Source of the DNA: Eledone cirrhosa
Lineage: Eukaryota
DNA: 64,000 nucleotides
Reading direction: 5' to 3'
NCBI GenBank assembly: GCA_964016885.1
Contig: OZ024740.1
Coordinates: 392,026,001-392,090,000, forward strand
Shown: piece by piece, positions 37,658 to 42,203 of the stretch
Layout: each line of letters opens with the position of its first letter
How positions within the stretch are numbered: position 1 is the stretch's first letter
Translations under genes and position numbers: made by a program
Notes under the pieces: generated by a model
The model's database searches: none
What the model saw: only the letters and a program-made list of their open reading frames with translations
What the model was told of the DNA's origin: nothing

Positions 37658-40600
37658 TGTCATGACTCCCAGGTCTGCCCTGGTCCGGGGTGGTAGTACC
37701 TGTTAGGGCTCCATTTATGGGTTAAATAACTACCTTATTCGAGTGGCGCCGGTAAGGTATTGTCAGCCATTGAAAAGAAATATGGAGAGTCGATCTAACA
37801 GCACTAGGGTTAGAGCCCCTAATTACACTGTCAAGGAGCAGCCTGGTCGTTATGACTCTGCTGGCTTAGAGCCATAGAGAGGGCCAGTGGATGATGGATC
37901 AGCTGTCTCTGAGACAAATATAAAGAATGCAGTTTTGTCCTGCAGAAGAGCCATCAAAATGGGCACTTTGAATGTGAGGACTATTCGAACGCTGGAGAAG
38001 AGAGAGGAGTTGGGACATCTGTTCGAGGAGAGTGGTATACAGATACTTGCGATCCAAGAACACAGGATTCTACACGATGAGCCCGTGAGGAGTGTGATGA
38101 TCGGGAGGAAGAGCCAGCTCATCACTACATCGGCAGTGAAGAACACAACAAATTCTGCAGTAGGAGGAGTGGGTTTTGTGTTCAGTGCAAAAACCAATCT
38201 GTTGGTGAGGGAAATAATGCCTATCTCCCCGCGAGTGTTGAGGGTGACCTTCAATGGAAACCCAAGACTGACAGTCATCTCAGCCTATAGTCCAACCGAG
38301 GGGGACAGTGATGTGAATGCCGAGGAGTTCCATGAGGAGGTGTGTAGAGCTGTCAACACCACTCAGGCACACAATATCCTGCTTGTTTTGGGGGACTTCA
38401 ATGCACATCTGAGTAAGGAGGGCAGTGAAGATCCTTGCTGGTACTTCCATAACAAGACCAACCGAAATGGAAGACTACTGAGAGACACCCTGCTGGAGGC
38501 GAACTTGATGGCGACCAACCTAAGGTTTAGGAAGAATCTGGGGAAGATGTGGACCTACATCTCAGATATGCACCTGTCCAAGTCCTAGATTGATTTCATT
38601 CTGGTGAGGAAAAAGTGGTGGAATAGTGTTCTGAACACGGAACCATACAGCTATTTCAGTACACTGGGTAGTGACCACCGGCTTGTTATGAGTGAGGTCC
38701 GCGTGAGCTTAAGAAAGAGCAAGGCTCAGCCCCGGAGAACAATCTATGACTGGGGAGCTTTCAAGGAAGATGATAAGCTACAGGAGAGGTTCACAGTGGA
38801 AGTGAGAAACAGGTTTAGTGCTCTGTGTGGAGAGTCAGAGGAGAGATTGGATGGACTGAGGAGAGTGTGACGAGGAGGTACGGGCACTTCACCAATGCAG
38901 TGGCGAAAGCAAGTGAAACCCTGGTGCCGAGGAAAAAGAACAAAGGGAAGCACGTCAGCTCTGCAAACCCAAAAGTGTATGCAGCCAGAGAACACCTGAA
39001 AGCTGCCAGGGACCAATTCTATGCTGATCCTACGGAGGAGAGGATGGAGACTGTGGAGGTGATGAGGGAAGAGCTCTGTACCGCTTACACTGAGGTCAGA
39101 GAGGAGGCACTGATAGAGAAGATCAGAAGTGTGGAGAGAGCGGTTGACAGATCTGGATGTAAGGAGAGCTGGATGATCATCAACGAGATCACAGGGAGGA
39201 AGAAAAGGTGTTCGAGTCAGATCCAGGGAACGGGGCCCGAGGATAGGAAGAGGAAATGGCTAGACCATTTTAGGACCCTACTAGGAGAGCCACCCTCCAT
39301 AGCCCAGAGCAGTGGGGAGATCAGGCGGCTGTTTGAGGAACTGGATGTTGAGACAGAGCCCTTCAACAGAGAGGAGCTTCAGAGAGCCAAGAAGAAGATC
39401 AAGGAGGGCAAGGCTCATGGAGAAGATGGAGTGGCATCAGAGGTGATGAAGAGGTGTGATTTTGATGATATCATCCTGGGGTTCTGTAACGGGGCACTGG
39501 AGAAAGGAGCTGCCCCGAATCAGTGGAGGATCAGTAACATCGTCCCAGTGCCAAAGAAGGGAGATCTCTCTAACACCAACAACTACCGGGGGATCTCACT
39601 GACGTCACTTGTGGCAAAGACCCTCAACAGGATGATTCTTAACAGGATCCAGTCTGAGATGGAGAAGAAGCTCAGGGACAACCAGAACGGCTTCAGAGAG
39701 GGTAGATCAACCACCAGTCACATCCTGATGCTGAGGAGGATATTAGAGGGAGCTAGAGCAAAGTGCCTTCCTGCGGTCATGGTTTTCATTGACTTTAGGA
39801 AGGCCTTTGATTCTGTGGACCGTTACTGCCTGATGAAGATCTTACAGGCTTATGGAATCCCCAAGAGGATAGTGGACCTGATATTACTGCTCTACACCAA
39901 CACCAAAGCCCAAGTCATTACACCTGATGGGATGACAGAGTTCTTTGAGATACTGGCTGGAGTGCTCCAGGGAGATACATTGGCTCCCTACCTTTTTATC
40001 ATGTAGTGGACTATTGTATGCGCCTTGCACTGGAGAAACACCAGGACTCTGGCTTTACTGTAGCACCGGCTCTGAGCAGGAGAGTTGGGGCGAAAAAGGT
40101 ATCGGATGCTGAATTTGCCGACGACATAGTTTTGGTGACAAATACAGTGAAGGAGGCAGAGGATTTGATGCGGGAGGTTGAGACTGTGTCGATGAGTGTG
40201 GGGCTGAGAATGAATGAGACTAAAACAAAATATCTGGTAGAGAATGTTGAGAAGCCAGAGGGGATCACTAATGTAGGCGGGAAGCCGCTGGAATTGGTTG
40301 AGGACTTCCTGTATTTGGGAGCAAAGATTGGGAATACGGAAGATGATGTGGTTGAGAGGAAGAGCAAGGCCTGGGCGGCGTGTCACAGCTTGAGATCGGT
40401 GTGGAAGTCGGACCTTCGTAGAGACCTGAAAATCCGCCTCTTCATTGCTGTAGTGGAGTCTGTGCAGCTGTATGGGTCTGAGACTTGGACACTGACCAAG
40501 AGACTCACTCAGATGGTGGATGGGTGCTACACGAGAATGCTGAGGATGGCTCTGAACATTAATAAGTATACACTGAGGATGAAAAACTCAGAGCTGTATG

Positions 40601-40835
40601 GGAGCATCACAAAAGTCAGCTCAAAAGTGACACAGAGGAGACTGAGGTTGGCTGGACATGCTCACCGACATCCAGAGTTGACATTGCACTCAGTGCTCCT
40701 TTGGGAGCCCCTACATGGACACACTAGAAGAGGAAGACCAAGGTTAACATATGTTGATGCCCTAAGGACAGACACTGGTCTGTTGGAGATGCAGGATATG
40801 GCAGCGATAATGAGGGACAGCGACCGCTGGAGAGA
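37658..40835 (+). mobile_element. Near-full-length RTE LINE (APE + RT), disrupted by a stop and frameshifts, lacking its 3' tail
   Basis: MGTLNVRT, LAIQEHR, GDFNAH, SDHRLV, NYRGISL, FIDFRKAFDSV, GVLQGDTLAPYLF, FADD, RRGRPR. Breaks at about 38586, 38850 and 40006. Confidence 0.93.
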
Positions 40836-42203
40836 ACAATTCTATACACTAATCAATAAACACTTTACAACTTCACATAAATACTATAAAATCTTTAACT
40901 CGCGCACCATTAGACTCTCATACTCCACTGCACCTAACATAGAACAACTAATTAAAAAACTCAACTCAGCAATACTGAATAAGTACATCCCTAATGACTC
41001 AGCGCACCAGCATAGCAACATACAACGCACTAACACGCAACTACAACCCCACCAAACTATCCAGGATTCTACTGCAAAACATAAAAATAATTGTAACTGC
41101 ACCAAACCAGGTACGTGCCCACTGAATAACCAGTGCCTAGCACGCAATATTGTCTACCGATGTACAATAAATTCCGGAAGCAACAAATGGTATTACGTCG
41201 GATGTACCGCAACTTCTTTCAAGGCTCGCCTATACCAACATCGATCTTCGATCAGGCACGAGAAAATGCGCTCCGTAACAACCCTCGCCGATAAAGCCTG
41301 GCAGCTCCGGAGGAACAATCAAGCATTCTCCGTTGATTGGCGGATTATTGCAGTGCGCCTGCATATAAGCAAAATCATCGATTCTGCAAGTTATGCAATT
41401 TGGAGATATACTGCATTTTAACGTCGGTAAACAACAACTTTGAACAGCAAAATTGAACGTTCTCTATACTGTAACCATCGTTTGAAAACGACTTTTTCTT
41501 TTTTTAAATGCATATAATGTTACCTTTTTACACCACCGTTTGCAAATTTCTGTTTTATATGTTTATCCACAAGATATGGCTTTCTATTATAATAGTACTA
41601 AACACTGTTTTCTGGACCCCTTTAGAAATAACCTGCTACTATAATAGCCCCAATAACTTGTCTGTGACACTGTACCACTTTGACCCCTTTAACTAAATTT
41701 TGTCCGAACAACACCACTAGAAGAATTTACTTCCCCCGCCAACCCTAACACGCCTCATTAAGCTAACTGCTTGCCAAAACATTCTCTCCTTGCAATCTTT
41801 ACTAGTCTGACAGTCTTAAATCCTAAGACTCCCTCCACCTTACTCACTTCCCTCTTCCCCTTCTCTTCCTACCTCCTTCTTTATCTTTTATCTAGCGTAT
41901 AAAATATTTTCATATCATTCCAATACAAAGGTCTGACGACATGGTGTGTTTACTTACAGTGTACCTTCGGTTTATGATAGTATTTTTATATTATTCAAAT
42001 AGCGAGGTATAGGTAACCCAAACACTATAGAAACAATTGTTACCTAATAAATTCTGTATACCCGCATTTCCATTTCATAAACTTCTTCTCCATATTTTCT
42101 CCGGATTTTAAAACACACTTTATTATACGTTGAGCAATCTCTGACGTCGGTTGACTCCATCCAATGCAACTACTTAGTAACATTGGAATACAAATTTACT
42201 AAT
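40836..42203 (+). mobile_element. Hydra-type PLE 3' part (linker, GIY-YIG, 3' UTR) fused to the RTE
   Basis: From QFYTLINKHF onward it is near-identical to the 8593-9728 part of the other copy and has the same 3' end at TA. Confidence 0.93.
41929..42045 (+). ncRNA. Hammerhead ribozyme, long stem II
   Basis: AGGT CTGACGA catggtgt...acactata GAAAC AATT GTT ACCT. Confidence 0.75.

Follow-up and report, generated by a model that had tools for sequence, protein, structure and literature searches.

How a long interspersed nuclear element (LINE) came to run in frame into part of a Penelope-like element (PLE) is the question raised by a 64,000-nucleotide stretch of the Eledone cirrhosa genome (assembly GCA_964016885.1, contig OZ024740.1, forward-strand positions 392,026,001 to 392,090,000; hereafter the window, with positions counted from its first letter). 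In a segment of 4.55 kb between (TA)n arrays that end at 37656 and start at 42204, an RTE-type LINE (37657-40837) is joined in frame to a 5'-truncated Hydra-type PLE (40836-42203), both on the plus strand; the LINE supplies the first 3.18 kb of the segment and the remainder is the 3' 1.37 kb of a PLE (Table 1). We conclude that the composite is probably a one-off joining of DNA by microhomology, formed either as the PLE inserted next to the LINE or through a deletion at a later time.

The junction was placed with contigs and reads from four of the 24 listed sequencing runs (X1, X4, X5, and X22), compared over 37655-42205, and with a second copy of the PLE family that lies at 8593. The listed runs included none of RNA, from which nothing follows as to expression. 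LINE matches end at 40837 and PLE matches begin at 40836, an overlap of 2 nucleotides (nt); at least 2 shared letters are expected by chance at 16% of joins. A stop-free frame (39949-41421) leads from the last LINE reverse transcriptase (RT) motifs through the LINE C terminus into PLE sequence. One join in three would be in frame by chance, and the common reading frame is likely such a coincidence. The original prediction, made from the letters alone, had described a disrupted, TA-flanked cassette in which a LINE, from its 5' untranslated region (UTR) to the end of its open reading frame (ORF), passes without stop, UTR, or tail into a PLE of the family near 8593 and ends at the usual 3' end of that PLE, and it had allowed that the frame might be fortuitous. 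Most of this description stands. Compared with the minus-strand copy at 8593-10269, the PLE half is 97.3% identical over 622 nt and 95.6% identical over 551 nt, with a total of 31 substitutions in 1134 aligned nt; both copies stop at the same base against (TA)n, TA arrays are present at both ends, the start falls in the LINE 5' UTR, and the copy is disrupted. Two details need amending: the 5' UTR appears to be clipped at 37657, ahead of which two X4 contigs carry 26 extra letters, and the LINE ORF does not end at the join.

In the LINE half, an apurinic/apyrimidinic-type endonuclease (APE) precedes the RT. Pfam matches in the APE region fall below the curated cutoff (Exo_endo_phos_2, E = 2e-4; Exo_endo_phos, E = 0.07), and tblastn aligns the region to the APE of the other LINE in the window (E = 1.6e-10). 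The RT is recognized as RVT_1 in two frames (E = 4.6e-21 and 5.7e-6); besides these domains, Pfam returned DUF6451 and nothing else. The thumb and C-terminal part is 60 to 71% identical to protein matches P0001 to P0003. RTE-clade LINEs have a single ORF with APE followed by RT, a short 5' UTR, and neither RNase H nor a C-terminal zinc knuckle, a description that the LINE half fits; it is presumably an RTE element, a label based on the single APE-RT frame rather than on a tree. The family is abundant and mostly 5'-truncated, with summed depth rising from 5' to 3' (for X1 from ~24,000 to 988,000, for X4 from 15 to 192; depths are not copy numbers). A piece of the 5' UTR (37685-37728) is also found in a far more abundant X4 repeat with other sequence on both sides, the depth being 3190 in that bin and 15 in the next.

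RTE-clade LINEs carry a 3' tail of short tandem repeats. Past 40836/40837, 41 X1 contigs and 3105 + 129 X22 reads carry at least 30 letters other than those of the composite, and 42 of 46 LINE-side protein relatives align to near the junction residue and extend beyond it by a median of 14 residues (many by 9 to 16, some by much more). Because the LINE sequences in the runs and the protein relatives extend beyond 40837, we place the join inside the LINE ORF; by this comparison the LINE half has lost its stop and its tail together with 10 or more codons. A search of the window for this missing 3' end returned a single match with two mismatches, as did 13 of 100 shuffles. We also considered a simple PLE insertion into the LINE, with the rest of the LINE displaced downstream, and rejected it, since that remainder was not found in the window.

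The PLE half has, by its motifs rather than by a tree, the features given for the Hydra clade: a CxCx5C linker, no CC between GIY and YIG, CxxC and CxH motifs around a conserved E and N, and a (TA)n target (PMC8557442). The linker lies at 41092-41118 and recurs in 101 of 118 PLE-side relatives, the GIY-YIG core (41152-41208) holds one Cys only and so has no CCHH-type cysteine pair, and a motif scan finds CxxC..E and CxH in the frames behind shifts at 41353 and 41435. The piece begins about 85 codons ahead of the Cys linker, in the RT-thumb/linker region. Since it aligns only downstream of the YxDD of its full-length relatives (to residues ~505-650 of proteins of 713 to 897 amino acids [aa], with YxDD at 312-373), it is without the PLE RT core. 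The 8593 copy begins just after the YxDD position, and all Hydra-type copies in the window are without the RT core. Absent from both window copies, too, is the RT N-terminal region, where Hydra-clade PLEs have RWK and DKT motifs and where the eight long relatives examined, at 29 to 35% identity, carry DKT (7/8) and RW[KR] (5/8). A canonical hammerhead ribozyme is another mark of the clade; no hammerhead core pattern was found in the truncated piece (40837-42203), and Rfam gave no match in the window. Pfam reported no GIY-YIG match for the composite or the 8593 copy; it was equally blank on eight long PLE-side relatives and therefore cannot type this PLE clade. Between the 8593 copy and the adjoining TA array, 180 nt (10270-10450, minus strand) show no likeness to RT in any of their frames; they may belong to the end of a different element or form the head of a nonautonomous one. 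A hammerhead-like core at 10380 within them has no Rfam match, and its minimum-energy fold is not a hammerhead.

A DNA join could have come about as follows. The LINE would have landed in a (TA)n array or next to one; the PLE would have nicked TA just downstream and begun reverse transcription from its own 3' end; and its truncated 5' end would have been attached upstream by microhomology inside the last LINE codons, with loss of the intervening DNA. Alternatively, a later microhomology-mediated deletion between two neighboring insertions would give the same sequence. Between these two routes we lean slightly toward joining at insertion. The odds given to this and the other explanations are matters of judgment and not of computation. 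PLE machinery likely made the 3' junction, because the 3' end is the PLE's own and lies on its own target.

Besides the missing LINE 3' end, which was not found elsewhere in the window, and the lack of a protein match to both halves (below), three observations favor the DNA join. First, each family continues into its own sequence in the runs. On the LINE side this is seen in the 41 X1 contigs and in 3234 X22 reads; on the PLE side, the 8593 copy and one X1 contig with a loose end carry the PLE's own sequence upstream of 40836, and an X5 contig (1186 nt, depth 63.6) aligns over 40847-41632 (785 nt), its other 401 nt being placed upstream by end distances. We read the dominant X5 form of the PLE as unjoined to the LINE, bearing in mind that contigs drop rare forms. 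The match of this contig begins 11 nt short of the junction. Second, the 8593 copy provides a precedent from the same family in the window, an internal deletion of 227 nt (at 9111-9114, relative to 41454-41680) flanked by a 4-nt repeat. Third, four of the five Hydra-type pieces in the window have non-TA sequence at their 5' homology boundary, which lies 182 to 3187 nt from a TA run in these four and within 25 nt in the other. Published precedents come from the rotifer Adineta vaga, in which Pen2_Av is described as inserted into a non-LTR element with no target site duplication (TSD) and a microhomology 5' junction, and many Penelope copies as disabled by microhomology deletions (PMC3846280).

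Other points weigh against a DNA join. The sense orientation of the halves, the closeness of the join to the 3' end of the LINE, and TA as its 5' flank fit a single insertion by template switching as well or better, although the TA flank is cheap, given that TA arrays make up 25% of the 64-kb window. Near-full-length LINE copies are rare (5'/3' depth of 2.4% in X1 and 7.7% in X4), so that a chance neighbor would usually be short. That a TA tail of the LINE attracted the PLE is hypothetical, and the native tail is absent from this copy. The halves are not separable in age. Finally, the runs appear to be without this particular copy: the best share of its words with any run is 0.65, about what 1.2 to 1.4% divergence from the family sequence gives, private alleles are absent or nearly so, and the allele that both window PLE copies carry at 41180 is absent from X1, X4, and X5 and present in at most 2 of 98 X22 reads. 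Missing support for the junction is thus to be expected.

In a comparison of ages, the LINE half differs from the contigs at 21/2882 sites (X4) and 19/1640 sites (X5), the PLE half at 30/786 and 28/1167. Taken as run-majority divergence, these counts would make the PLE half the older (Fisher P = 6e-9 for X4 and 0.016 for X5), a conclusion that we dropped, as the excess is partly a subfamily difference. Among the 40 variant sites listed of 422, the substitutions at 41180, 41307, 41325, and 41367 are common to both window PLE copies and serve as subfamily markers. Bounded accordingly, private differences amount to 8 to 22 of 1168 sites (0.7 to 1.9%) in the PLE half and at most 0.7 to 1.2% in the LINE half. 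Because the PLE range overlaps the LINE value, the halves cannot be put in order by age, and on these divergences both are young.

The original prediction had attributed the composite to a template switch during reverse transcription, and a single event of this kind is a possible though rather unlikely origin. The PLE RT, primed on (TA)n, would have copied 1.37 kb of PLE RNA and then switched, by way of the 2-nt overlap, to a position near the 3' end of a LINE RNA; after copying another 3.2 kb there, it would have joined the product to TA. The composite structure, the halves in sense orientation, a 3' end of the PLE type, TA on either side, and compatible ages fit such an event; moreover, template jumps have been shown in vivo for R2 (PMC3414825) and proposed for PLEs (PMC3846280) and plant RTEs (10.1101/2022.11.04.512097). 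The join, however, falls within the LINE ORF rather than at an RNA 3' end, while the cited R2 jumps are described as end-to-end (in a reference title in PMC3414825). A switch would also need a 4.5-kb cDNA from an RT whose core is lacking in every Hydra-type copy of the window, and the raw divergence is higher in the PLE half, if partly through the subfamily difference. The 2-nt overlap and the target loss would be left equally by 5' attachment or by deletion repair, and the paper on R2/R1 hybrids itself prefers nonhomologous recombination over jumps (PMC3414825).

It is quite unlikely that the LINE came second, as a 3'-truncated, endonuclease-independent insertion that patched a break in an existing PLE and deleted the 5' part of the latter. 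L1 insertions of this type are described without 3' ends and TSDs and with target deletions in 18 of 21 cases (PMC1920257), the PLE half may be slightly the older (half-pairwise divergence of 1.4% versus 0.7%; P = 0.02 against X4 and 0.34 against X5), and four of six private indels fall in it (P = 0.07). The age gap nevertheless vanishes once subfamily differences are bounded, and 18 of the 21 published cases are also 5'-truncated by at least 3 kb (PMC1920257), whereas the LINE here is near full length.

A continuous APE-RT-GIY-YIG ORF is not found in this copy, which has two stops (37875 and 38586) and four frameshifts (~38840, 40002, 41353, and 41435), four of these lesions being in the LINE half and two in the PLE half. 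The LINE frameshifts are a 4-nt deletion at ~38840 and a 1-nt deletion at ~40002; the shift at 41353 puts the CxxC..E region, with the catalytic Glu, out of the fused frame. All six lesions are lacking in the run majorities: at 37875 all four compared runs read another letter, the stop at 38586 is private to this copy, and for 38840, 40002, and 41353 X4 gives clear support and X1, X5, or X22 partial support. With every lesion confined to this copy, the fused frame could have been intact at the time of joining.

That inference, together with the lack of any indel between 40002 and 41353, is what speaks for a mobile chimeric family, of which the locus would be a founder or a decayed member. Such an element would combine the LINE APE-RT with the PLE Cys linker and GIY-YIG nuclease (~1,190 aa), use the PLE 3' UTR, and be retargeted to (TA)n, and we consider its existence highly improbable. 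The several copies of the junction that the original prediction had set as the sign of a mobile family did not turn up, although the test is a weak one: the junction is seen once in the 64-kb window, no piece bridges 40837 among the 24 listed of 15,157 run contigs and pieces, and none of 164 fetched proteins matches both halves (46 on the LINE side and 118 on the PLE side, including the best 150 of 6448 for a balanced junction query). Two further protein searches agree, in that none of the 14 matches from one extends beyond the LINE side and none of 84 longer candidates matches the PLE half. As all protein matches are at most 75% identical and the databases hold no closer relative, the source genome itself being probably absent from them, this negative is weak. 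X22 molecules end at AATT and at CATG-containing sites; an AATT at 40838-40841 means that molecules with the junction would end 4 nt behind the join, and we therefore dropped low X22 depth behind the join as a bound on junction copies. The major X5 PLE contig passes the join position unbranched, with the caveat on rare forms given above, and an intact fused ORF was encountered neither here nor among the proteins. A mobile family would further require the LINE RT to recognize a PLE 3' UTR. No LINE with a C-terminal GIY-YIG domain appeared in the titles and abstract openings of papers on chimeras, screened in a collection with few subscription papers and without Repbase.

An assembly or library chimera has a very slim chance of being the cause: no bridging read was seen at the join and the window has several fold-back palindromes and an N gap, yet misjoins normally need a long shared repeat rather than 2 nt, inverted structures are nothing unusual in PLE insertions (PMC8557442), and absent support is expected of runs that appear not to contain this copy.

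Table 1. Features of the composite retroelement and of the related PLE copy in the window
Feature	Coordinates	Strand	Basis
5' (TA)n array	37480..37656	.	Sequence, segment map
LINE 5' UTR, apparently clipped at its 5' end, with start of frame and stop at 37875	37657..37958	+	X4 contigs, four runs
APE-type endonuclease, stop at 38586; end coordinate approximate	37959..38700	+	Weak Pfam, tblastn
LINE RT core, split by 1-nt deletion at ~40002	39548..40254	+	Pfam RVT_1 in two frames, indel table
LINE thumb and C terminus, cut at least 10 codons before natural stop	40255..40837	+	Protein identity, loose ends in runs
Junction, 2-nt overlap common to LINE and PLE	40836..40837	+	Run contigs and reads
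5'-truncated Hydra-type PLE ORF: thumb/linker, CxCx5C, GIY-YIG core	40836..41517	+	Motif scan, relatives
PLE 3' UTR, same terminal base as 8593 copy	41518..42203	+	Alignment
3' (TA)n array	42204..43998	.	Sequence, segment map
Second copy of same PLE family, 5'-truncated	8593..10269	-	Alignments

The surroundings of the composite are rich in further repeats. Just upstream, a 400-nt TA-flanked element (37000-37655) is duplicated, TA flanks included, at 31651-32320 (94.9%). A PLE frame of 590 codons on the plus strand (10670-12445), of the canonical type with a Cx2-5CxxC linker and a cysteine pair inside GIY-YIG, faces the 8593 copy head to head, with a TA run in between; at 6067-8177, a Hydra-type PLE (minus strand) and a different PLE (plus strand) are likewise head to head, but no TA run separates them where they meet (near 7350-7500); and in the PLE at 46131-48447 the 3' end recurs in inverted form at the 5' end. 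A second LINE family (54747-58103, minus strand) has an unbroken APE-RT frame with a PHD-finger-like insert, with truncated copies at 61298-62303 and 62522-63861. Fold-back palindromes, mostly in TA arrays, lie at 22224-22474, 33033-33263, 43927-44542, 52302-52460, and 62297-62754. A 595-nt unit is repeated in tandem in about three copies (99.9% alike), with inverted copies adjoining and 32 kb away (17978-19837, 19845-20010, and 51181-52015).

As it stands, the locus has little significance: it is a single dead junction, in a region choked with repeats, of two retroelement families that are both abundant and young. An in-frame join of LINE RT to GIY-YIG is nonetheless the kind of accident that domain exchange needs, and is raw material for it; PLE nucleases are argued to have been gained or swapped several times (PMC8557442). 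A multicopy family, if one came to light, would represent a new architecture among retroelements and would make it possible to test whether (TA)n targeting comes from the CxCx5C linker and GIY-YIG domain alone. It would then be, after Dualen, a second type of LINE with two endonucleases and a live example of nucleases passing from one retroelement subclass to another. The likeness to Dualen LINEs lies in a LINE RT with two endonucleases; those of Dualen, however, are APE and a restriction-like endonuclease in an active multicopy clade (PMC9977147), whereas the second nuclease here is of the GIY-YIG type, frameshifted, and seen once. Identity with Dualen/RandI was rejected, as this nuclease is not restriction-like.

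Comparison with other known systems points to more ordinary events. The PLE half shares with Hydra-clade PLEs the linker, the GIY-YIG without CC, the CxxC and CxH motifs, and the (TA)n target, and differs in that the RT N terminus and core are missing and no hammerhead core was found in the piece (PMC8557442). Hybrid R2/R1 short internally deleted elements (SIDEs), and R2 jumps to U12 or tRNA, likewise combine the 5' part of one retroelement with the 3' part of a second one, at whose target they are inserted; SIDEs, unlike the composite, are multicopy, noncoding, and within one class, and their authors favor recombination over template jumps (PMC3414825). Nonclassical L1 insertions resemble it in a LINE without its 3' end, no TSD, and loss of target DNA, and differ in being mostly short fragments defined by an empty site (PMC1920257). 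In Pen2_Av, as here, a PLE 5' end is joined to a LINE by microhomology without a TSD; there an intact partial tandem PLE sits inside the LINE, whereas here a 5'-truncated PLE is joined in frame and the rest of the LINE on the 3' side is absent (PMC3846280). Together, these comparisons place the composite among ordinary nested or fused retroelement insertions, which it resembles.

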